The notes under the pieces were generated by a model. That model made no database searches. It saw only the letters and a program-made list of their open reading frames with translations, and was not told where the DNA came from. A program made the translations under genes and the position numbers. From Patescibacteria group bacterium (GTDB taxonomy: Bacteria; Patescibacteriota; Minisyncoccia; Phycocordibacterales; UBA918), in NCBI GenBank assembly GCA_019745315.1, contig JAIETH010000002.1:32654-96653 (forward strand): a stretch of 64,000 nt of DNA. The letters are read 5' to 3'. Shown piece by piece: positions 342 to 22,106 of the stretch (position 1 is its first letter; the number at the start of each line of letters is the position of its first letter).

Positions 342-517
342 ATCATTACATGATCAGTACAGGTTTCTGATATTTTGATTCGCATAGCTCTCAAAATATC
401 TAGTAACCTTCTCTAACAGTTCACAGAACTATTAGAGCCTTTCGAGTGAGAAAGTGCGGGGCACTTTTGCAAGACTTTCTATGGCAAATTATTCTTTTTA
501 TTTTGTTGTGTACTTTG

Positions 518-590
518 TGCGCGCACTAGGGGTCGAACCTAGGACCTTTCGAGTATCAGTCGAATGCTCTACCAACTGAGCTATGCGCGC
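518..590 (-). tRNA. tRNA-Ile, anticodon GAU.
   Basis: The reverse complement folds as a canonical 73-nt cloverleaf: GCGCGCA acceptor, GCUC/GAGC D-arm, UUCGA/UCGAA anticodon stem with loop CUGAUAC giving anticodon GAU, and T-arm CUAGG-UUCGACC-CCUAG. CCA is not encoded. Confidence 0.85.
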
Positions 591-925
591 ACAAAACCTA
601 CAACTTTAAAATAAAAGGACAATTTGCCTAGAAAGTATACAGCTTCCGTAGGAAGTCAGTCGAATATTCCCCCAACCCTATTGCCGGCCCCCTAGGGCAT
701 CGGCAATTTCCTCCTATGGTCGGAACCGGATTCAAAGCAAAACTGTTTACTTTGAATAGCCAGCGCGCATTTTCGAAATACAATCCTTGAATAAATGGAT
801 GAGTATTGCTTCGAGATAGTATCAAAAATAGTACTTTATCGCAATGAAATTGTGATTTTGTATAGAAATCATAAAGGGCCGAAACGAATGTTCCGGCCCC
901 CTTCCATCTGCTCGCTTGCTGGCCA

Positions 926-1926: not shown

Positions 1927-3385
1927 ATTGGAATTAATCCACGACCAGCTTCCGCTAGCCGTGCCTTGTTACGACTTAGTCCCTGTCATCGAGTTTACCG
2001 TAAGCCTACACGAGGTAGGATTTCGGGCACTCCCGACTCCCTTGACTTGACGGGCGGTGAGTACAAGGCTCGGGAACGTATTCACCCCGGCGTTGCTGAT
2101 CCGGGATTACTAGCGATTCCGACTTCATGAGGGCGAGTTGCAGCCCTCAATCCGAACTGGGGGTACTTTTATAAGGATTTGCTCCACCTTACGGTATTGC
2201 GTCCTGTTGTGGTACCCATTGTATCACGAGTGCAGCCCAAGGCATCAAGGGACATGCGGACCTGGCGTCATCCTCACCTTCCTCCCCCGTGAGGGGGCAG
2301 TCTCGCCTGACAAATATAACAGGCAACGAGGGTTGCGTTCGTTTCCCCACTTAAGGGAACAACTCAAGCCACGAACTGACGACGGCCATGCATCACCTGC
2401 CATACACCCTCGAAGGCTTCCCCGGTTTCTCGGGGCGTGCAGTATGGTTTCTAGCCTTGGTAAGGTTCCTCGCTTAGCGACGAATTAAGCCTCATGATCC
2501 ACCGCTTGTGCGAGCCCCCGTCTATTCCTTTGAGTTTTAATCTTGCGATCGTACTTCCCAGGCGGCCCGCTTAACGCGTTAGCTTCGCCTCAGAGAGGGT
2601 CGATACTCCCTAAAGCTAGCGGGCAACGTTTAGGGCGTGGACTACCGGGGTATCTAATCCCGTTCGCTACCCACGCTTTCGTGTTTCAGTGTCAGGAATA
2701 CGCCAGTAAAGTGCCTTCGCATTTGGTGTTCCCCATGATATCAACGGATTTCACCCCTACACCATGAGTTCCCTTTACCTCTCGTATCCTCGAGCGTAGC
2801 CGTTTCCTCCGCGATTACCGGGTTAAGCCCGGTGATTTAACGGAAGACTAACTACGCCACCTACACACCCTTTACGCCCAGTAAATCCGGATAATGCTCG
2901 GGGCCTCTGTATTACCGCTCCTGCTGGCACAGAGTTAGGAGCCCCTTATTCATGAGGTAACGTCAAAATTTCCTCCCTCATAAAAGATGTTTACGTCCCT
3001 AAGGACTTCATCCATCACGCGGCGTCGCTCCGTCAGGCTTGCGCCCATTGCGGAAGATTCTCGACTGCAGCCTCCCGTAGGAGTATGGCCCGTGTCGCAG
3101 TGCCATCGGTGGGGGTCAGCCTCTCAGCTCCCCTACGCGTCGTAGCCTTGGTGAGCCATTACCTCACCAACTAGCTGATACGTCGCAGGCTGTTCCCAGA
3201 GCGATAAATCTTTACTCTCTCGAGACCATCACGTATTATCTCGCCTTTCGACGAGTTATTCGTGACTCTGGGGTACATACCTACGTGTTACTACCTCGTC
3301 TGCCATGGGTCTAAACCCATTCGACTTGCATGCCTCATCCACGCCGCCAGCATTCATCCTGAGCTAGGATCAAACTCTAATTTAA
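1927..3385 (-). rRNA. rrs: 16S ribosomal RNA, about 1.46 kb, with no large insertion.
   Basis: On the reverse complement there are universal landmarks: a 5' end ...AGAGTTTGATCCTAGCTCAG at about 3359-3378; a 515F-region variant TTACCGCTCCTGCTGGCAC; a 1492R-region GCCTTGTTACGACTT; and helix 45 with a GGAA tetraloop. The 3' tail reads GGAUUAAUUCCAAU rather than GGAUCACCUCCUUA. Confidence 0.9.
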
Positions 3386-12323: not shown

Positions 12324-13703
12324 TTATCGTAATCGAATAGTAACACCGAAGCGACCAAGAAGCGTCTTGAATGTGCGGAGTGCGATATTTATATCCAGCA
12401 AGAGTGATCGATGCTTGATATAAAATAAATCGTATGCCAAGCGCATATGCGTCTCCTCAACAGACTGCGGACTAATATGCCCCGGAGTGTATTGTTGATG
12501 GGTTTGAGCCCATCCTGTAATACCTGGCTTAATAATAGTGCGTATTGCGTAAAATGGTATCTCCTCTCCGAGACGGAGGGCAAGACCTTCAATATCATTG
12601 CGCGGACCAATGAGCGACATCTCGCCTTTTAAAATAGTAAGCACCTGAGGCAGCTCATCAATACTTGTCTTGCGAAGAAGTGCTCCTACTTTCGTCACTC
12701 TATTTTTTGACTCACCGAGCCATACACCGTTTTCATTTGAGCTCATTGTGCGAAACTTGTATACGGTGATAACAGTTCCTGCAATCCCCATCCTTCGTTG
12801 CGCAATAAAGAGCGGACCTTTATCTTCAATACGAATCGCACACCACACTAATGGAATAATACACAGAAGAACAATGCCCAAAAGCGATGCGCCAACAATA
12901 TCAATAATTCGTTTCAAGAAACTATATACCGGCTGAGCTGACCGAGTTACGTGTGCCAAAAACCACTCGTAATGCAGCATCGAAACAGGTACTCGATCGA
13001 ATATTTCTTCGTACATCGCATGAAAGTCAATAAACCGCATACTTTTGTCTGAAAACGTAAGTGTGAACAAGAGAGGTACAAGCTTTGTAATTTCAGGATT
13101 CCGCGTATCACCGACAATGATAGAAATGTTTTCTTTTTCTACCAGGAGCCGGACTTTGTTTTCAAGATCGCGCGTCTCAGAAAGCATCTCGGCGTTGAGG
13201 ATACGCACAAATGTTATGCCGTATCGTGAATTTGAATTAACCTCTCTCACCAAATCTTCAATCTCTTCTCCTTCCCCCACCAACAATGCTTTACGGCGTG
13301 TTTTTGGCATCAAATATTCAACCAATAGCAATCGCCACACGAGAAGTGCGGCTGACGAAATAACAAAATAGATGAGCAGATTTGTTTTAGGCGTAATGCC
13401 GAAGTACGGTATAAAAAAGAAAAATAACGCAGCGAGAGCTGCATTTACCATTTGTGCATTAGTGATGGTGCTCAGCATTCCTCGCTTCACAAACTCTGTA
13501 TGCTTGTCATAGAGACCAGCTATAAAAAACACCACAACCCACGCAATTGAGAGAATAAGAAACGGTGCAAAGTGAGCGCCAAAAAGCTCTGAGTCTGGAA
13601 AACCCCAATAGCGCACACAAAGGGTGACCCACAGGGCTAGAAAAAAGATACCAATATCTCCCAAGAGAAGGAGTAGTGACTCTCTTTTATTGTGATAACT
13701 CAT
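12324..13703 (-). CDS. Polyprenyl glycosylphosphotransferase (bacterial sugar transferase, WbaP/CpsE-like).
   Basis: N-terminal TM helices and a C-terminal YKFRTM...LIGPR sugar-transferase signature. The start was chosen at MSYHNK. Confidence 0.7.
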   Translation of the reverse strand: MSYHNKRESLLLLLGDIGIFFLALWVTLCVRYWGFPDSELFGAHFAPFLILSIAWVVVFFIAGLYDKHTEFVKRGMLSTITNAQMVNAALAALFFFFIPYFGITPKTNLLIYFVISSAALLVWRLLLVEYLMPKTRRKALLVGEGEEIEDLVREVNSNSRYGITFVRILNAEMLSETRDLENKVRLLVEKENISIIVGDTRNPEITKLVPLLFTLTFSDKSMRFIDFHAMYEEIFDRVPVSMLHYEWFLAHVTRSAQPVYSFLKRIIDIVGASLLGIVLLCIIPLVWCAIRIEDKGPLFIAQRRMGIAGTVITVYKFRTMSSNENGVWLGESKNRVTKVGALLRKTSIDELPQVLTILKGEMSLIGPRNDIEGLALRLGEEIPFYAIRTIIKPGITGWAQTHQQYTPGHISPQSVEETHMRLAYDLFYIKHRSLLLDINIALRTFKTLLGRFGVTIRLR

Positions 13704-13808
13704 AGAGGGTAAAACCAAGAATATGCTTATATTACAACAAAAAAACAAGGAAACAAGTTACTTTAAGCCGACTTTTAAAGTGATATACTTAGGAAAATAG
13801 CCTCCAAT

Positions 13809-13866
13809 ATGAGCAATAAAACCAAAAAGAAAATACTATTCCTGATTACCAAGAGCAACTGCGGGC
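13809..13866 (+). pseudogene. Remnant duplicate of the N-terminus of the downstream GT4 glycosyltransferase.
   Basis: The stretch ATGAGCAATAAAACCAAAAAGAAAATACTATTCCTGATTACCAAGAGCAACTG parallels the real gene start (MNNPPNRKKILFLITKSNWGG versus MSNKTKKKILFLITKSNCG), then truncates. Confidence 0.45.
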
Positions 13867-13895
13867 TTTCAAAGCAACGGGGTTGCTTTGAAAGA
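13867..13895. other. Perfect 13-bp stem hairpin (ctttcaaagcaac-ggg-gttgctttgaaag) directly after the gene fragment.
   Basis: Read directly from the sequence. Confidence 0.5.
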
Positions 13896-13933
13896 AAAAC
13901 AACCGCCCCAATTCACCAGCTACAAACCAAAGC

Positions 13934-15094
13934 ATGAACAACCCTCCCAATCGAAAAAAAATATTGTTCCTGATTACAAAGTCTAACTGGGGCGGCGCCC
14001 AACGCTACGTCTTTGACCTTGCAACATCTCTTCAAAACTCTTTTGATGTTGCGGTAGCCCTTGGAGGCAACGGCAAGCTTGCTGAAGTGCTTCAGACACG
14101 GAACATCAAAACACTCCCCATAGCCGACCTTAAGCGAGACGTATCTCTCACGCATGAATGGAAAGCGTTTTTAAATCTCTATCGACTACTGCGTACAGAG
14201 CGGCCAGACATCCTTCACCTCAATAGCTCTAAGGCGGGCGTACTTGGCGCACTTGCAGGACGTCTCGCACGCGTACCACACATTATATTTACCGCTCACG
14301 GCTGGGCATGGAATGAAAATCGTTCTCTTGTTTCAAAAATATGTATTGCCGCTCTTCACTGGATAACAGTGATACTTTCAGATCGCACCATAGCGGTGTC
14401 TCATAACATATATGACCAAATGGCACGTTTCCCTTTTACCCGAAGACGTATGCGGGTAATTCATCTCGGAATTACACCTCTTCCCAATCTCTCGCGTGAG
14501 CAAGCGCGCCAAAACATACTGGAAATAATTCCAGGATTAAAAGAAGATAGAGACGGGCTATGGGTAAGCACTATCGCAGAACTTCATCCCATCAAAGGTT
14601 TTTTTCATGCGCTTCCCGCGATACAAGAAGCTCAAAAAAAGTATCCTGGTTTACGCTATATCATATTCGGCGAAGGAGAAGAACGGCTCAAAATTGAAGA
14701 CTACATACAGAAGAATGATCTTACGGAAACAGTATGTCTGGCTGGATATGTACATGATGCCTCAGCGCTCCTTCCTGCTTTTGACCTTTTTATACTCCCC
14801 TCATTCTCTGAATCATTTGGATACGTACTCGTAGAAGCTGGAGCAGTAGAAGTACCCATCATAGCAACCAATGTCGGAGGTATCCCCGAAATAGTTGAGG
14901 AAAATGCCGGTGTATTAGTGGAGCCTGGCAATACAGAAGCACTTGCTCATGCCATCGTAGACGCCTTAGGAAATACAAAAAAGATGCGCGCCTCAGCTCG
15001 CACCTTGAAGCAGCGCGTACTCACCCACTTTACAAAAGAACGTATGTCTGAAGAAACAGCAGATATCTATACCGATCTCCTTACTAAAAGATAA
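13934..15094 (+). CDS. Glycosyltransferase family 4 (GT1-fold).
   Basis: Contains the SESFGYVLVEAGA...PIIATNVGGIPE signature of GT4 enzymes. Confidence 0.75.
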   Translation: MNNPPNRKKILFLITKSNWGGAQRYVFDLATSLQNSFDVAVALGGNGKLAEVLQTRNIKTLPIADLKRDVSLTHEWKAFLNLYRLLRTERPDILHLNSSKAGVLGALAGRLARVPHIIFTAHGWAWNENRSLVSKICIAALHWITVILSDRTIAVSHNIYDQMARFPFTRRRMRVIHLGITPLPNLSREQARQNILEIIPGLKEDRDGLWVSTIAELHPIKGFFHALPAIQEAQKKYPGLRYIIFGEGEERLKIEDYIQKNDLTETVCLAGYVHDASALLPAFDLFILPSFSESFGYVLVEAGAVEVPIIATNVGGIPEIVEENAGVLVEPGNTEALAHAIVDALGNTKKMRASARTLKQRVLTHFTKERMSEETADIYTDLLTKR

Positions 15095-16204
15095 CTATTG
15101 ATCGTGCTCAATAATGACTCGCTTTTTGCGCTTTGTCATACCAATAAGCATTCCAATACCGATACACTCCGTAATGAGGTGAGACCCCCCATAACTTAAA
15201 AATGGCACCGTTGTCCCCGTTACTGGCAAGAGTCCTATGTTCATACCTATATGCACAAAGAAGTGCGTGGTGATGAGTATGGCGAGCCCAGTGCCAAATA
15301 ATCGCTCAAAGTTTGTTTCTCCATCAAGTGCACGAAATAGTATCTTCCACACCAAGAGCGCAAAAAGGAGAAAAACGAGCAGCGCTCCTATAAACCCCCA
15401 CTCCTCAGCAAAGGCAGCAAAAATAAAGTCTGTTTCATATTCTGGCAAAAACTCGAGCTTCGATTGTGTACCATATCCAATACCCTTACCCAACAACTCT
15501 CCCGAGCCGACGGCGATCGTCGATTGGTATGCATTGTATCCAGTACCCTGAATATCAGCGAGCGGATGAAGAAATGTTCTAATGCGATCTTTTTGGTATT
15601 CCTGGAAACCAAAAAACCACAATCCACTAAATGAAAGGACACCGAGGAGAAAAACAGCGCCTACGTGTCGCCACGAAATTCCTGCAACCAATACGAGGCC
15701 AAACCATACAGAAAAAAGAATTATGGCGCTCCCGAAGTCAGGCTGAATGAATACAAGCGCGAAGATAAAAAATGCATAGAGACCCGAAATAATAATATGT
15801 CGAATATCTGCAATTTCTACATGTCGCTTTGAAAAGTATTTCGCCAATACCATAATCAAAACGAGCTTTGCGGGGTCTGACGGCTGAAGTGCAAAGAAAC
15901 CGAAATCAAACCGACTCTGAGCACCCTTTACCACTGTTCCAAATACCAACACTGCAGCAAGCACTGCAATTGTTGCCATGTATATATAAAAGACTGCATT
16001 TCCCGTTCTTAAAAAACGGTAATCGGGAATAGCTGCTATAACAAGAAAGAAAAAAGAAACACCAATCCATATAACCTGTCGCTCAAAATAGAGATTGTCT
16101 CCCAGGTACGAATACATCGTCATAAGGCCGAGCAGACTCAAGACGAGCGCAGTGCCAAAAAGCCACATATCAAAGCCTGCAAATAGCGCTTTTAGTGCTC
16201 GCAT
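15095..16204 (-). CDS. SEDS family peptidoglycan polymerase (FtsW/RodA).
   Basis: A 10-TM protein with the conserved FAAFAEEWGFIG and PFLSYGGS regions. Confidence 0.75.
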   Translation of the reverse strand: MRALKALFAGFDMWLFGTALVLSLLGLMTMYSYLGDNLYFERQVIWIGVSFFFLVIAAIPDYRFLRTGNAVFYIYMATIAVLAAVLVFGTVVKGAQSRFDFGFFALQPSDPAKLVLIMVLAKYFSKRHVEIADIRHIIISGLYAFFIFALVFIQPDFGSAIILFSVWFGLVLVAGISWRHVGAVFLLGVLSFSGLWFFGFQEYQKDRIRTFLHPLADIQGTGYNAYQSTIAVGSGELLGKGIGYGTQSKLEFLPEYETDFIFAAFAEEWGFIGALLVFLLFALLVWKILFRALDGETNFERLFGTGLAILITTHFFVHIGMNIGLLPVTGTTVPFLSYGGSHLITECIGIGMLIGMTKRKKRVIIEHDQ

Positions 16205-16215
16205 GGAAATACTAC

Positions 16216-17598
16216 TTACGGACGCTCTTGGTTGTCATTGAGCTCCCCGATCACCTTTGGCACGATATCAATCACCGCAGCCCCATCCTCGCAGAGTGAA
16301 GTAGTTATTGAGCGATAGATACCGTCGAGAGAGGCTTTATCTAAAGCGCGATATTTTTGCGCGGGGTCAGACGCTATCGAGGTTAAGAAACTGTCTTCAA
16401 CACCTTCGCCAAGTCCAATAGTGATAATAGTGATTCCTTGGTCTTTTGCTCGTTGCGCTGCCGCAATTGCATATGCTTCAGGGTCAGGATCAGGTTCGTT
16501 TGTTTTTCCATCAGTAAATACAATCAATACTTTGCGTGCATCAGGATTATGTCGAGACGACTCAAATTCTTCCGTGGCAACAAGAATTGCATCTCCCACA
16601 TTGGTTCCTCCTGACTGCTCTTTAGGATCAATAGTGAGTCCTTGTACCAACGTACCTACTCCCATCGTATCGCCGGTCAGCGATCGAGAAAGAGTTCCCC
16701 CAGTTGCAAAGGTTGCTATTCCTATTTGATCTTTGCTCCGTAGTCGTTCTACGAACCCAGATGCCGATCGGAGTACAGAGGTAATCGGCTCAGGCGGTGT
16801 ACCACCCTCAGAGTCCATACTTCCAGAAAGGTCAATTGCCATAATTACATCAGTAGGAATCTCACAACTCGTGATAGTTTTTGCTATCGGTTCAGGCCAG
16901 GTAAATGTGACCACTTTCTCAGTTCGTCCTTCAAAGAGAGGGACCACGGTGCGTGAAGCAGTGAGGGCATTTCCTTTTGCATTAAAAATAGTCGCGATAA
17001 TCTCTACGCTTCGAGCATCGTTAAGGGACGTGTTTGTGAGAGATGCTTCAAGTCGTGGCTTCGTGTCCGCATCAACAAGTGCTCGCGAATTAACCGTGAA
17101 CTGGGCGCGATTATCTGTAAAGACCTCCCACCGTGTTACAGGTGCAAGCGTAATGGTGGTTTGAGCAGGAACTTTATTTCCTGTACTGATGCGTCCTTCA
17201 AAAATAGGATACTCACTATCTGGTGGCAAAAATGTTGTCCCTGTTTTTTCAGCTATTTTGGAACCATCAGCCGCAAAGAGTGTAAACGTGTATGAGAGCT
17301 CTCGCGTACCAACATCAAGATTTTTATTTTCTACATACGCCACCGCATTGTAAACGCCATCTGAAACCTTAAGCGCACGACTCCACGCGACTGTCGGCTC
17401 GAGCACATCAAATGGGCATACGAGCACGCACGAACCACCGCAATCAATACCACGCTCATCACCATTTTGGCGATCATCAAAACATGTTGGCTCATTTCGT
17501 ATGAAAAAGAAATAAATTAGCGTGAAAACCACTGCAAAAAAAAGCACTATGCCAATGACATATTGCACCCTTCTCCAAAAAGCCCACGGTCTATACAT
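16216..17598 (-). CDS. Membrane-anchored von Willebrand factor type A domain protein.
   Basis: N-terminal TM, an AIDLSGSMDSEGG MIDAS-like motif and downstream VWA features. Confidence 0.6.
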   Translation of the reverse strand: MYRPWAFWRRVQYVIGIVLFFAVVFTLIYFFFIRNEPTCFDDRQNGDERGIDCGGSCVLVCPFDVLEPTVAWSRALKVSDGVYNAVAYVENKNLDVGTRELSYTFTLFAADGSKIAEKTGTTFLPPDSEYPIFEGRISTGNKVPAQTTITLAPVTRWEVFTDNRAQFTVNSRALVDADTKPRLEASLTNTSLNDARSVEIIATIFNAKGNALTASRTVVPLFEGRTEKVVTFTWPEPIAKTITSCEIPTDVIMAIDLSGSMDSEGGTPPEPITSVLRSASGFVERLRSKDQIGIATFATGGTLSRSLTGDTMGVGTLVQGLTIDPKEQSGGTNVGDAILVATEEFESSRHNPDARKVLIVFTDGKTNEPDPDPEAYAIAAAQRAKDQGITIITIGLGEGVEDSFLTSIASDPAQKYRALDKASLDGIYRSITTSLCEDGAAVIDIVPKVIGELNDNQERP

Positions 17599-17651
17599 AC
17601 ATGTATTGTAACAGAGAGCTGAGCATAAGAAAAAAGTATCTACTAGAAAAC

Positions 17652-17839: not shown

Positions 17840-17948
17840 ATCTGGCGGCTACCTACTCTCCCTCTTGCGAAGTACCATCGGCGCTAGAAGGCTTAACTTC
17901 CGTGTTCGGAATGAGAACGGGTGTGACCCTTCCGCCAAACCACCAGAT
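17840..17948 (-). rRNA. rrf: 5S ribosomal RNA, 109 nt.
   Basis: The reverse complement AUCUGGUGGUUUGGCGGAAGGGUCACACCCGUUCUCAUUCCGAACACGGAAGUUAAGCCUUCUAGCGCCGAUGGUACUUCGCAAGAGGGAGAGUAGGUAGCCGCCAGAU aligns to the 5S consensus, including the CCGAAC and GUAC loop E regions and helix I. Confidence 0.85.
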
Positions 17949-18012
17949 TATAATGTTCGATTGTCAAAAGTATGGGGCGAACGGCGTAAAATAGTGCCCC
18001 ACACTATTTTAC

Positions 18013-18034
18013 CCCTTCCGCCAAACCACCAGAT
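18013..18034 (-). repeat. Partial 5S rRNA copy covering the first 22 nt of the 5S gene.
   Basis: A direct repeat of the 5S 5' end at 17927-17948. It is preceded by an 11-bp hairpin at about 17985-18010. Confidence 0.6.
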
Positions 18035-18293
18035 TTAAATATTTAATCTGTTGGAATTTAATATCAAGTGTAGTATTTTTGCAACTCAAAATCAAAACCT
18101 AAGCAACTCTATGAATGCATAGTATTCCTTGTCTTGAATCCTGAAATCGAAATTTGCATGACGATGTTCAGCATTCCTTACAGGAAATACATTCTATTAG
18201 TACACCTCGGCTCCGCATATTTCTATGCTTCCACCTGGTGCCTATCAACCTGATAATCTCTCAGGGAATTTAATGATTCCTCATCTTAGAACT

Positions 18294-18326
<33 letters not shown>

Positions 18327-18452
18327 ATTCCGAACGTAGCTACAGGGCAATGCCGCTGGCGCGACAGCCCTCAGACCAGAGGTTCGTTCATCCCGGTCCT
18401 CTCGTACTAGGGACAAATTTCCTCAAGAATCGACGCCTGCAGTAGATAGGAG

Positions 18453-18486
<34 letters not shown>

Positions 18487-18561
18487 GCGTAACTTTTTAA
18501 TTGGCGAACAGCCAAACCCTTGGGACCTGCTCCAGCCCCAGGATAAGTTGAGCCGACATCG

Positions 18562-18927
18562 CTGTCATTTTTCCCACATTACTGTGAGGATCGGACTATA
18601 TCTTCATCCATACGTAATTTCGCATGGAGATCGGCGTGTAGTCTCTACGGGATCATGTACCAATATGCTTTCGGAATGAAATTAATCTGAAATTGATACT
18701 GACTTCCCACGGTATTGTCCACCTTCTCATTCTCTCTTACGAGAGCGGCTGATGTGGAGTTCACCGTTATAGCCAATTTGTTTTTGTACGGCATTACTGC
18801 CATAGGCACCCCGATGTATTTCGTTTGTTCTATATGGACTTTCGTCCATACAATCTTCGCTCACTCGGTCATGCAAAAGTAAACTTTTGCGCGACGCTCA
18901 TTCGCTTGATTGTAACTACATAAGTTA
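18562..18927 (-). ncRNA. Group I intron of 366 nt in 23S domain V, inserted after the U equivalent to E. coli U2500. It carries no ORF.
   Basis: Exon continuity GGCACCU|...|CGAUGUCGG. The 5' exon ends in U and the intron ends in G. The core sequences GUAGAGACUACACGCC and AAGAUAUAGUCCGAUCC resemble group I P7/J8-7. Confidence 0.65.
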
Positions 18928-19495
18928 AGGTGCCGAACCGTGCCGTCGCTATGGACGCTTGGGCACGACTAGCCTGTTATCCCCAGGGTAACTTTTATCG
19001 GGTAATCTCCGGCCGCATCTAACGCGTACCATCGGTTCACTATGCTCCGCTTTCGCGTCTGCTTGGCATCTACGCCTTACAGTCAAGCTGGCTTATGCCA
19101 TTACACTATCGGCACGGTTTCCATTCGCGCCTAGCCAACCTTGAGACCCCTCCGTTACTTTTTAGGAGGGTAGCGCCCCACTAAAACTGCCTACCACGCA
19201 CTGTCTCAGCATGATTTTTTCATGCTGGTTAGAAACTGCCCGAGTAAAGAATGGTATTTCACTGACGAGTCCACACTTCCCAAAAGAAATGCTTCAACCT
19301 CTCCCATCTATTCTACGCATCACAAGAACAGCCTCAATACGAAGCTACAGTAAAGCTCCTGGGGTCTTTTCGTCTAACTGCAGGTACCCGGCATCTTCAC
19401 CGGGATTGTATTTTCACCGAGCAAGTCCTTGAGACAGTTCCCCAGTCATTACGCCATTCGTGCACGTCGGAACTTACCCGACAAGGAATTGCGCT

Positions 19496-19722
19496 CTTCT
19501 ATTCCTCAAAGAAGGACTCTGTCTTCGTCCGTCCGCATAGGCGACTAAGGACGCGTGACATCTGGTCTCTTTGTGGTCACGTTTTGACTAAGCGTACATC
19601 TCTGTACGCAAGGTAGCTTTTTGAATGATCATCTACGTATCTCTCATAGATGAATTTGCGTCCATTTACCAATCCATAATCGTTCCAGTCATTCGGTTCA
19701 CTTCATTACTGAAATGAACCGA
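19496..19722 (-). ncRNA. Insertion of 227 nt in 23S domain IV at the L1931-equivalent site. It is a candidate small group I intron or intervening sequence.
   Basis: Helix 69 is intact (AGCGAUAACUAUAAUCGUU). The exon reads CUAAGGU|...|AGCGCAAUUCC. The insert begins with U-exon, ends with G, and contains CCUUAG, which is complementary to the 5' exon. Confidence 0.5.
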
Positions 19723-22106
19723 ACCTTAGAACGATTATAGTTATCGCTGACATTGACCGGGGCTTACATAGCCCAGCAGTACAGATTGCTCCATACCACC
19801 TTCCATGTTTAACCTTCCGGCATTGGTCAGGCGTCACCCCCTATACATCCACTTACGTGTTCGCAGGGAGCTGTGTTTTTGGTAAACAGTTGCCAGGGAA
19901 TCTTTCGCTGCGGCCTCTCACCTTGCGGCGAGGAGGCAGGCCTTATCCCGAAGTTACGGCCGCTTTTTTGCCGAGTTCCTTAAGGACCTCTCACTCGTTC
20001 GCCTTGGTCTACTCGACCTGATCACCTGTGTCGGTTTGCGGTACGGAACCGTTTTGTGTAACGTAGAAGTTTTTCTTGGAAGCGTGCTCCCACAATTGAC
20101 GTGTCCGAAGACACATCTTCAGGTTCAACTCGGATGTGCATTAAAGCAGAAGTGCGGATTTACCTACACCTCACCCTCGAAGCACCAACGAAAATCCAGT
20201 AATTCGTTTGAAGTACAACCCTCCGTCCCTCCATAGAAACAAAACGGTGTTATGGAATATTAACCATATGTCCATCGCCTCCCCCGTTCGGGATCGGCTT
20301 AGGCCCGACTAACCCTTGGCTGATCACCATCGCCAAGGAAACCTTGATCTTTCGGCGGGAGGGGCTCTCACCCTCCTTGCGGTTACTTGTGCCGGCATTC
20401 TCACTTCCATACGCTCCAAGTCGGGTCTCCCCTCCTCTTCATCGCAGAATGGAACGCTCTCCTACCACTTACTCTGTACGAATACAGAGCAAATCCGCAG
20501 TTTCGGTACTATGCTTGAGCCCCGATCATCTTCGGCGCAGAAACTCTCGACGAGTGAGCTGTTACGCTATCTTTAAAGGATGGCTGCTTCTAAGCCAACC
20601 TCCTCGCTGTCAATGAATTTCCACCTCCTCAAGTTGCACTGAGCATAGATTTAGGGACCTTAACTGGCGATCTGGGCTGTTTCCCTTTTGACCAATGGAG
20701 CTTATCCCCCATAGTCTAACTGCCGTGTTTTTAATCCTTGGTATTCGGAGTTTGATAGGTCCCACGAGATTTCTCCCTGTTGGGACCTTCCAGTGCTCTA
20801 CCCCCAAGGGGAACACACGACGCCAACCCAAAAGCTGTTTCGGAGAGAACCAGCTATTACGGAATTCGATTAGCTTTTCACTCCTTACCACAAGTCATCC
20901 GATGGTTTTGTACGGCCAACCGGTTCGGGCCTCCCCTTATCTTTCGATAAGGTTCACCCTGCTCATGGCAAGCTCATCCCGCTTCGGGTCGCATTCTATC
21001 CCTTATAATTTCGCGCTATTAACACTCGCTTTCGCTCTGCCTCCGGGGGTCGTCCCCTTAGACGAAGGAATACAATGCACTCGCCGGCTCATTCTTCAAT
21101 AGGCACGCGGTCACCAGACTTACGTCCAGCTCCCACTCTTTGTAGGCATACGGTTTCAGATCTATTTCACTGTCCTCACCGGACTGTTTTTCACCTTTCC
21201 CTCACGGTACTCGTTCACTATCGGTCTCTTAAAATATTTAGCCTTAGGAGTTAGTGCTCCCAGATTCATTCGAGCTATTCATGTCTCGAACTACTCAGGA
21301 ACGACAACAAGAAAGTAGTATTGATTTCGTATACGGGACTATTACCCACTGGGGTCACGCTTTCCAGCGTGTTCTACTACCAATACTTTTTGTAACTTTC
21401 CTCAACTAAATGAAGTTGCCGCCCTACAACCCCGACTATGTAAACACAATCGGTTTGGGCTGATCCCGTTTCGCTCGCCGCTACTAAGGGAATCGCAAGT
21501 GTCTTCTTCCTGACTATAATGGCTCCGCCAGTTGGCAGAATTTAGCCAGAAAGAAAACACCTTGTATTGCTTTCTTTTCCTCCAGGTACTGAGATGTTTC
21601 ACTTCCCTGGGTATGCAAATGTCTTACGACAAATCTCTATCGTAGATAGAGGGGTTTCCCCATTCGGAGATCCTCGGTTATAACGATTGCTTGGCATCTT
21701 ACCGAGGCTTATCGCAGCCATGCCACGTCCTTCTTCGCTTTTAAGAGCCTAGGCATCCACCGTACGCCCTTCATTCCTGTAAGGAATGCTAGACACCGTT
21801 TAAGGCACTTTCCATTCCATTACATGAATACTAAACACCGCTGTTTAGATTTTGATTTTTGTTGTTGTTCGCATGACACACACTCTGACGAAAAGACCCT
21901 CTTTAAAGACATGTGTGCACCATGCGTCACGTGTATGCAACAAAACATACACGATTGCTCGATACTTCCTACATGATATTAAATTTTCAACGAGCGAGTG
22001 TCCCGTATAAGGACTAAAAAAACCGCTTTGAGCGGAGAGAGAAACCCACAGAGAGTCCAACTTCCGCTTACAGGTTTTTATAGTTACTCATAGACACGTA
22101 GCCGCC

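Follow-up and report, generated by a model that had tools for sequence, protein, structure and literature searches.

The 23S ribosomal RNA (rRNA) gene on a 64,000-nucleotide (nt) stretch of DNA from a Patescibacteria group bacterium (GenBank assembly GCA_019745315.1, contig JAIETH010000002.1, positions 32,654 to 96,653; the whole stretch is called the window here) is interrupted by a 227-nt insert at the site known as L1931, just 3′ of helix 69. Comparison with relatives establishes the architecture assigned to this insert, the conservation of that architecture and its group I homology. Read in this light, the insert is probably a reduced derivative of a group I intron, one that has lost the P4-P6 domain and most likely still works as group I introns do.

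The Insert and Its Boundaries

Rfam places the 23S rRNA at 21783..18175 on the minus strand (LSU_rRNA_bacteria, 2278 bits). The gene spans 3609 nt against the 2925 positions of the model, and outside its inserts the rRNA is intact. An earlier note, made from the letters of the window alone, had described a 227-nt insertion at the L1931-equivalent site that begins after an exon U, ends with G and leaves helix 69 intact. All of this holds: a MAFFT alignment with Escherichia coli rrlH places the 227 nt precisely between E. coli U1931 and A1932 (window 19722..19496, minus strand), the sequence and the same alignment confirm the flanking U and the last-base G, and helix 69 is indeed whole. We take the site to be the junction of helices 69 and 71 at the subunit interface, following established ribosome structure.

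With slashes marking the junctions, exons and insert read ...AGCGAUAACUAUAAUCGUUCUAAGGU / UCGGUUCAUU ... GGAAUAGAAG / AGCGCAAUUCCUUGUCGG; in a longer reading, the insert starts with UCGGUUCAUUUCAGUAAUGAAGUGAACCGA and ends with UUGAGGAAUAGAAG between the exons AGCGAUAACUAUAAUCGUUCUAAGGU and AGCGCAAUUCCUUGUCGG. The boundaries are unambiguous because the junctions have zero shared bases. The ligated exons would read AAUCGUUCUAAGGU/AGCGCAAUUCC, that is, CUAAGGU-AGCGCAAUUCC with the lineage's own flanks.

Rfam, run over the whole window and in a permissive scan of 19440..19780 (E ≤ 10), reported no intron family on the insert. The permissive scan returned the flanking large-subunit model and two chance matches (a small nucleolar RNA and a plastid 3′ untranslated region; E values of 1.8 and 6.5). 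A group II intron or another ribozyme class likewise has no Rfam match on the insert at E ≤ 10, and 227 nt is far below group II size. The sequence is strongly folded, with a minimum free energy (MFE) of -71 kcal/mol (z = -4.55) that beats 200 of 200 dinucleotide shuffles.

A Family of Reduced Inserts at L1931

Relatives were sought in GTDB genomes, one per species, with a pattern consisting of the helix 69 loop and CUAAGGU followed by a non-A base, which picks any L1931 insert. At least 120 loci carry one. Among the matches listed, to which the family counts below also refer, about 60 are canonical group I introns, mostly from phyla outside the candidate phyla radiation (CPR). In these, about 10 nt separate the 5′ splice site from the guide GCCUUAG, after which come P3, P4-P6 (GGCUAUAUGCUGG...CAGCAGG), CAGAGACUACACGCC, P8 and AAGAUAUAGUCC.

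About 49 matches share the 5′ architecture of the window insert: a hairpin starts at intron nt 1-2, (A)AGGACUGGGAC(N)2UUAUAG follows, and most end in ...AGGAAUAGNNG. Their record titles give Saccharibacteria, Paceibacteria, Nomurabacteria, Kaiserbacteria, Yonathbacteria, Adlerbacteria, Zambryskiibacteria, Minisyncoccia and similar names, or belong to unlabelled metagenome-assembled genomes (MAGs), while a few (L040, L075, L076, L084, L106) are titled Bdellovibrionales or Gammaproteobacteria. Long relatives at L1931 encode single-domain LAGLIDADG_1 proteins (74-94 bits). The short forms, 27 of the roughly 49, measure 178-299 nt, lack P4 motifs and come from Patescibacteria or unlabelled MAGs. 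The closest relative listed, a Saccharibacteria MAG (L020), has a 23S that is 91% identical and an L1931 insert of 221 nt that is a close homologue. On the strength of this 23S identity, the window was placed in Saccharibacteria.

Membership of the reduced family was defined by a 5′ hairpin, an X-X′ helix, a helix 69 guide, an internal guide G(C/U)UACCU, a GNRA-capped P2, a P3 leading directly to J6/7-P7, an AGGAAU-type L9 loop and a terminal G. The window insert has every one of these features and fits every helix of the family consensus; an nhmmer family profile, which includes it among its 20 sequences, matches it over its full length at 127.6 bits (E = 1.2e-37). The lineages that share this architecture have 23S exons only about 74-91% identical. 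Judged from these genomes, the predicted reduced L1931 introns are widespread in Patescibacteria.

Structure by Comparison

The window insert and 19 short relatives, each extended into the flanking exons by 20 nt (5′) and 6 nt (3′), were aligned by MAFFT without regard to structure. Pairs were then counted on the alignment for a hand-written structure including pseudoknots, with partners slid by 1-3 columns and 500 shuffles as controls. Across the 20 sequences, 90.4% of cells form standard pairs, compared with 35-39% for slid partners, and compensatory changes occur in 36 of 69 pairs; none of the 500 shuffles reached the observed values. The elements of this comparative fold are listed here in transcript order.

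19727..19740, minus strand: 5′ exon segment CUAUAAUCGUUCUA (E. coli 1914-1927, loop and 3′ strand of helix 69), target of the 5′-exon guide, complementary to 19687..19674
19723..19727, minus strand: 5′ exon AAGGU, exon strand of P1, pairing with ACCUU of the internal guide; the 5′ splice site follows U1931 (19723)
19693..19722, minus strand: Ha, terminal 5′ hairpin of 13 base pairs (bp) with a GUAA loop, starting at intron nt 1; 13 of 13 pairs compensatory, 90.7% of cells paired
19687..19691, minus strand: strand X, UGACU, pairing with X′ at 19589..19585; 95% of cells paired, outer pair G-C in 15 sequences and U-A in 4
19674..19687, minus strand: 5′-exon guide UGGAACGAUUAUGG, pairing with the 3′ strand of helix 69; 98.9% paired over 9 core pairs, 3 of them compensatory
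19618..19673, minus strand: A-rich linker, 20-70 nt across the family, holding a lineage-specific hairpin (19653..19629, loop AGAGAUA)
19610..19617, minus strand: internal guide GCUACCUU, about 105 nt into the intron; GCU pairs with 3′ exon AGC (P10) and ACCUU with 5′ exon AAGGU (P1)
19592..19609, minus strand: P2 hairpin (Hb), 7 bp, loop GAGA; 7 of 7 pairs covary, GNRA loop in 20 of 20
19585..19589, minus strand: strand X′, AGUCA, partner of X
19576..19581, minus strand: P3 5′ strand CGUGAC, pairing with 19559..19554; 97.4% of cells paired, 4 of 6 pairs compensatory, its place matching P3 in the alignment of relative L086 to Rfam model RF00028
19570..19575, minus strand: joiner CACAAA, 6 nt, in place of P4-P5-P6; L086 and L042 have about 66 nt there
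19565..19569, minus strand: P7 5′ strand GAGAC (G, bulged A, GAC), the guanosine-binding strand, followed by P3′; within the invariant AGAG.CCA and matching AGACUA of RF00028
19554..19559, minus strand: P3 3′ strand GUCACG, partner of 19581..19576
19526..19553, minus strand: P8 hairpin; 4 of 5 outer pairs compensatory, interior variable and including CCUUAG
19518..19525, minus strand: J8/7 AAGACAGA; family consensus AAGAUAGA or AAGAUAUG, with AAGA.A invariant, matching the RF00028 consensus AAGAUAUAGUC
19514..19517, minus strand: P7 3′ strand GUCC; G.CC invariant and the intervening U nearly so, GAC/GUC paired in 20 of 20
19497..19513, minus strand: P9/P9.0 hairpin UUCU-UUGAGGAAU-AGAA, whose stem covaries
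19501..19506, minus strand: L9 loop AGGAAU, the 3′-exon guide, pairing with exon +7..+12; compensatory changes at 2 positions
19496, minus strand: terminal G (omega-G); the last nt is G in 27 reduced relatives and the window insert (28 of 28)
19493..19495, minus strand: 3′ exon AGC, exon strand of P10 (E. coli 1932-1934); 100% complementary to guide GCU/GUU in 20 of 20
19484..19489, minus strand: 3′ exon AUUCCU, target of the L9 guide (E. coli 1938-1943)

The exon pairings vary in step with their targets. Each helix 69 variant comes with its own guide, the exon/guide types being UCGUU/AACGA, UCGUC/GACGA, CGGUC/GACUG or GACCG, CUGUC/GACAG, CCGUC/GACGG and CGAUC/GAUUG. The pairing of L9 with the 3′ exon was read from a second, gapless alignment of 29 3′ ends, where rare exon variants are again matched in the loop (AAUACC/AGGUAU, AGUACC/AGGUAC and UAUUUCC/GGAAAUA). 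Read in reverse complement, the internal guide GCUACCUU gives the ligated exon AAGGU/AGC, a complementarity retained in 19-20 of 20 sequences. L021 (GCUACCC) apart, every reduced member has G(C/U)UACCU.

Two motifs singled out in the earlier note met different fates. The nested hairpin GGUUCAUUUCAGUAAUGAAGUGAACC is present and belongs to the 13-bp hairpin formed by insert nt 1-30. CCUUAG, put forward as a candidate internal guide, also occurs, at 19550..19545; with about 0.05 matches expected per 227 nt, it is not significant alone. As a guide it was rejected: it sits in the variable interior of P8, is unconserved and is missing from the closest relative, L020, and it would set U opposite U1931. 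Two other assignments were also considered. GACUGG (insert 33-38) is not the 5′ strand of P7, as it forms a covarying pair with X′ (AGUCA) and the true P7 strand, AGAGACC, lies upstream of P3′. A closing pair of P9 between C229 and omega-G is less favoured: mapped onto the canonical P7, C229 would more probably face the G beneath the bulged A and leave omega-G free, although both columns are invariant and the data fit either pairing.

The hairpin in the A-rich linker is found only in the window and in L020 (3742..3962), with loops AGAGAUA and CGAGAUA and stems that differ by compensatory changes. This pattern suggests a lineage-specific functional add-on.

Group I Ancestry

The ancestry of the insert is read through relatives that share its 5′ leader and have kept P4-P6. 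Four of them match RF00028, the Rfam group I model (L086 at 50.7 bits, L058 at 39.6, L075 at 30.2 and L005 at 29.3), and L086 is at or above the gathering threshold of 50 bits. In its alignment to the model, P3, P4-P6, J6/7-P7 (CAGAGACCAAAC), P3′, P8 and J8/7-P7′ (GAAGAUAUGGUC) coincide with segments homologous to those assigned in the insert. The block of about 66 nt that L086 and L042 have between P3 and P7 (CUAUAUNCUGGGAAG...AUCAGNAGGGAAG...) is matched by RF00028 to P4-P6. An nhmmer profile of the short forms is also informative, since its 3′ half (positions ~124-200) matches canonical group I cores at L1931 and at other sites. Among these is the Rfam-annotated intron of the same 23S (18658..18582, E = 1.2e-5), and J8/7 lies within the matches to canonical introns.

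Features expected of a group I intron are accordingly found in the insert: a pseudoknotted P3-P7-P8 core with a guanosine-binding P7 and J8/7, an exon U at the 5′ splice site, a last-base G and a guide that pairs with both exons. AGAG.CCA (J6/7 and the P7 5′ strand with its bulged A), AAGA.A (J8/7) and G.CC (P7 3′ strand) show no variation across the 20 sequences. When mapped onto Tetrahymena numbering, the guanosine-binding G-C pair, the A-U pair above it, the bulged A and the pair below are all retained.

The earlier suggestion of a group I intron at L1931 is thus upheld as to ancestry, through the P3-P7-P8 core, J8/7, the terminal G and the P1/P10 complementarity, and it fails as to canonical status. 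In particular, a canonical intron of near-minimal size is contradicted by the absence of the whole P4-P6 domain and by a null result for RF00028 at E ≤ 10. In covariance-model searches, a check named in the earlier note, RF00028 was silent on the insert and matched relatives that keep P4-P6.

Departures from Canonical Group I Introns

Only 6 nt separate P3 from J6/7-P7, and none of the 28 reduced members has a P4-P5-P6 domain. The splice-site G.U wobble has gone as well, with U1931 facing A in all 20 aligned reduced members. Relatives with P4 motifs and a readable guide nearly all keep G opposite U1931 (GCUGCCU), the exception being L060 (GCUACUC). The G.U wobble is normally recognised by J4/5, a part of P4-P6, and the two losses are therefore coherent. 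Because the insert fails on both the domain and the wobble, it is not filed as a canonical group I intron; it also falls short of the RF00028 gathering threshold. Canonical L1931 introns, for their part, have no counterpart to the leader (Ha, X, the helix 69 guide and the linker) or to the L9-exon helix. The 13-bp pairing of the guide with the 3′ strand of helix 69, the pairing of L9 with the 3′ exon and the U-A that replaces the splice-site G.U are new features.

Several observations weigh against a working group I derivative. RF00028 finds zero match on the window insert even at E ≤ 10; the other reduced members score 0-24 bits, with two sub-threshold matches of 24.1 and 19.6. The MFE structure favours another fold in the 3′ third of the insert, and the comparative fold is about 5-12 kcal/mol costlier than the MFE, pseudoknots uncounted. 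P1 and P10 are beyond covariation testing because the exon columns are invariant. The distal two pairs of P7 are mismatched (C.A and A.G) in the insert and in 13 of 20 relatives. Finally, P4-P6 supplies J4/5 and one catalytic-metal ligand in group I ribozymes, so that unaided catalysis may be weak and a helper may be required.

Proposed Mechanism and Alternatives

Removal of the insert would most likely proceed by the guanosine-initiated, two-step transesterification of group I introns, as far as can be inferred from the retained elements. A guanosine bound in P7 would attack after U1931; the terminal G would then replace it, and the 5′ exon would attack the 3′ splice site. Each exon would be held twice, the 5′ exon by the 13-14-bp helix with the helix 69 strand and by a P1 of 4-5 bp, and the 3′ exon by a 3-bp P10 and by the 6-bp L9 helix, 6 nt downstream of the splice site. 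These doubled exon-intron pairings, rather than docking of P4-P6, would keep the exons in register. From strand connectivity, the helix 69 guide helix, P1, P2 and X-X′ should meet in a four-helix junction, with Ha bridging the distal ends of P1 and X-X′ and so setting the splice-site phosphate at the base of Ha. The resulting pseudoknotted exon clamp could substitute for P4-P6 docking, and a protein or RNA helper may be needed. Since the window copy has no homing endonuclease gene, it has probably been inherited vertically or mobilised in trans.

A bolder extension of this proposal is tentative, if plausible: the reduced inserts may be natural, autonomously self-splicing group I-type ribozymes without P4-P6. 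They would then be the smallest natural members (178-230 nt) and a new structural subgroup confined to Patescibacteria, in which the four-helix junction and the helix between L9 and the 3′ exon would replace P4-P6 as scaffold and wobble receptor. Nature would then have its own equivalent of the engineered ‘minimal catalytic domain’ discussed below.

A metagenome scan for an intron-less or spliced junction returned 61 contigs, the nearest 95.5% identical, and gave neither evidence of splicing nor an intron-less allele of the same strain. Four short rRNA-only contigs (L152, L179, L150 and L157, from JGI contigs whose names begin Ga0075498_ and Ga0075501_) have the intron-less junction together with the lineage's helix 69 variant, at 88-95.5% exon identity. 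Either relatives without the intron or assemblies of spliced rRNA could account for them.

The alternative that survives best, although unlikely, is a group I-derived intron that has lost its own catalysis and is spliced only with help in trans; candidate helpers are a protein maturase or chaperone, or a P4-P6 domain lent by another intron of the same pre-rRNA, such as the L2500 intron (18927..18562). Both P4-P6 and the G.U wobble are gone from the insert, and 570 nt further downstream the same transcript contains a canonical group I intron that has kept its P4-P6. Engineered Tetrahymena ribozymes without P4-P6 need high Mg2+ or polyamine, or P4-P6 supplied in trans. A natural parallel may exist in the degenerate group I introns of lichen fungi, which are excised in vivo (PMC8527467) and are reported not to self-splice. 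Against such dependence, the added exon guides resemble a compensation that is built in, and neither the insert nor the neighbouring L2500 intron holds a maturase or LAGLIDADG gene, no open reading frame (ORF) fitting into the 227 or 366 nt.

An intervening sequence excised by RNase III, the second choice of the earlier note, or by some other endonuclease, with no ligation and hence a fragmented 23S, is a very unlikely reading. That type was raised as a possibility for short CPR inserts unmatched by intron models (Tsurumaki et al., 2024; PMC11270868), and hairpins do stand at both ends of the insert. These are separate hairpins, however, and no long stem joins the ends, which remain unpaired with each other. 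The site lies between helices 69 and 71 and not in helix 25 or 45; to our knowledge, a 23S break at this place would be unprecedented. The conserved part of the insert is, moreover, a group I catalytic core. An endonuclease-cut or retained insert would need no terminal G, guanosine site, J8/7 or two-exon guide, and no selection on these would be expected, yet all of them are conserved throughout the family. Retained catalysis is argued from this selection.

Least likely of all is a decaying, functionless remnant or an expansion segment kept in the mature 23S, to which the missing domain, considered essential, and the blindness of RF00028 might point; the same reduced architecture recurs with abundant compensatory changes across Patescibacteria lineages whose exons are about 74-91% identical, so that purifying selection on structure and not decay is indicated, the rest of the 23S is intact, and 227 nt retained at the helix 69/71 junction of the subunit interface would be implausible. 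A reduced group I derivative that still works in the group I manner thus remains the preferred reading.

Other Elements of the Locus and of Related Loci

The second intron of the same 23S follows E. coli position 2500 and spans 366 nt (18562..18927, minus strand), of which RF00028 covers only 18823..18572 (63 bits). The extra ~104 nt at its 5′ end form hairpins inside the P1 loop, and about 120 nt separate the 5′ splice site from its guide GGGGUGCC, which pairs with exon GGCACCU. Leaders of such length inserted in L1 thus appear to be customary in these CPR introns and not peculiar to the L1931 family.

Compared with E. coli, the 23S has further insertions of 68 nt after position 227 (21499..21566), 54 nt after position 289 (21383..21436) and 21 nt after position 1502 (20132..20152), as well as several deletions. 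Rfam reported no family for these three insertions, which may be expansion segments or intervening sequences of the RNase III type.

The rRNA genes of the window are unlinked. On the minus strand, the order is 23S, 5S, about 14.4 kb of protein-coding ORFs, 16S and the isoleucine transfer RNA (tRNA-Ile), with the following positions.

17947..17840, minus strand: 5S gene; 23S and 5S together occupy 17840..21783
3385..1927, minus strand: 16S gene, far downstream of the 23S-5S pair
517..590, minus strand: tRNA-Ile, beyond the 16S

Just downstream of the 5S, window positions 13296..17613 are 98.2% identical to a 5.2-kb metagenome contig that ends near this gene (L001; ENA ERZ27249646, contig k119_89533). 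This is a closely related strain assembled elsewhere, whose assembly breaks at the rRNA.

Among the relatives, ten that keep P4-P6 (L058, L075, L086, L011, L085, L114, L044, L060, L007 and L106) have U, C or A as their apparent last base before exon AGCG. Some canonical L1931 inserts (L038, L120, L002, L056, L099 and L016) likewise appear to end in U, C or A. Sliding the boundaries recovers no terminal G in these relatives; either these inserts use their 3′ splice site in another way or the exon junction is other than assumed. In L058, a separate stretch of 104 nt (644..747, minus strand) matches RF00028 end to end at 36 bits while skipping about 100 model positions from P3 to P7. This may mark a further group I element, severely reduced or fragmentary, elsewhere in 23S.

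Implications

More than half of the rRNA inserts of CPR bacteria match group I or group II intron models; the remainder, including nearly all those of Saccharibacteria, have been left unclassified (Tsurumaki et al., 2024; PMC11270868). One recurrent class of these, at site 1931, can now be assigned to a structurally defined group I derivative. Since standard covariance models miss the reduced class, the intron counts of Patescibacteria are underestimated, and both rRNA annotation and primer design for these bacteria need a model of the reduced family.

A domain held to be universal and essential in group I ribozymes has been lost, together with the wobble, in a lineage under strong structural selection. 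If the reduced inserts do self-splice, they would reveal, in a natural setting, what portion of the group I fold catalysis requires, and would show exon-binding helices substituting for tertiary docking. The intron guide must unwind helix 69, and splicing would therefore be coupled to formation of the intersubunit bridge. Such coupling is relevant to how ribosomes are assembled in organisms that have few biogenesis factors.

Comparison with Known Systems

The nearest catalogued objects are the CPR rRNA inserts surveyed by Tsurumaki et al. (2024; PMC11270868). In that survey, position 1931 (23IS7) is a site rich in LAGLIDADG_1, in agreement with the proteins encoded by the long L1931 relatives described above, and 64 of 66 Saccharibacteria inserts are short (≤250 bp) and have neither a group I or II intron nor an endonuclease gene. 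The short Saccharibacteria inserts were left uncharacterised there, with the RNase III type raised as a possibility. The window insert resembles the short 23IS7 inserts in organisms, site, length class and the lack of an ORF or an Rfam intron match, and is almost certainly one of the objects counted. Their structure and group I ancestry, given here, are absent from that paper and from every other paper found.

Intervening sequences processed by RNase III share with the insert a small size, the lack of an ORF and a location in bacterial 23S. They typically occupy helices 25 and 45 and have a terminal stem that joins their ends, whereas the insert is at another site, has no such stem and contains a conserved ribozyme core.

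A 2026 paper on tRNA introns of Patescibacteria mentions ‘divergent group I introns’ that RF00028 overlooks, but presents these as normal in length and structure. In the nuclear rDNA of lichen fungi, degenerate group I introns are removed precisely in vivo (PMC8527467 and earlier work), and they are reported as unable to self-splice. Like the insert, they are small rDNA introns of group I ancestry with parts of the core missing; they are eukaryotic and nuclear and are not known to share its architecture, a comparison drawn from their published description.

The canonical group I introns at L1931 are a further close comparison. They have the same site and the same P3, J6/7-P7, P8 and J8/7-P7′ elements (AGAGACNANAC...AAGAUANAGUCC), a guide complementary to CUAAGGU and AGC, a terminal G and, in long members, LAGLIDADG_1 genes. 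Unlike the insert, they have P4-P6, the splice-site G.U and a guide set about 10 nt away from the 5′ splice site. The helix 69 guide, the X-X′ helix and the L9-exon pairing are all missing from them, and they are widespread outside Patescibacteria. They include the roughly 60 canonical inserts recovered here and introns of Thermotoga, Simkania and organelles; work by Nesbo and Doolittle from 2003 reportedly concerns such introns.

A literature search for natural bacterial group I introns without P4-P6 found none, in a coverage that leaves out most subscription journals and in which absence is not proof. One precedent is artificial: Ikawa, Shiraishi and Inoue reportedly engineered, in 2000, a Tetrahymena ribozyme deleted for P4-P6 and described as a ‘minimal catalytic domain’. 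Like the insert, it has the P3-P9 half alone as its catalytic unit. That ribozyme needs non-physiological conditions, whereas the reduced L1931 family is natural and conserved and comes with added exon-binding elements.

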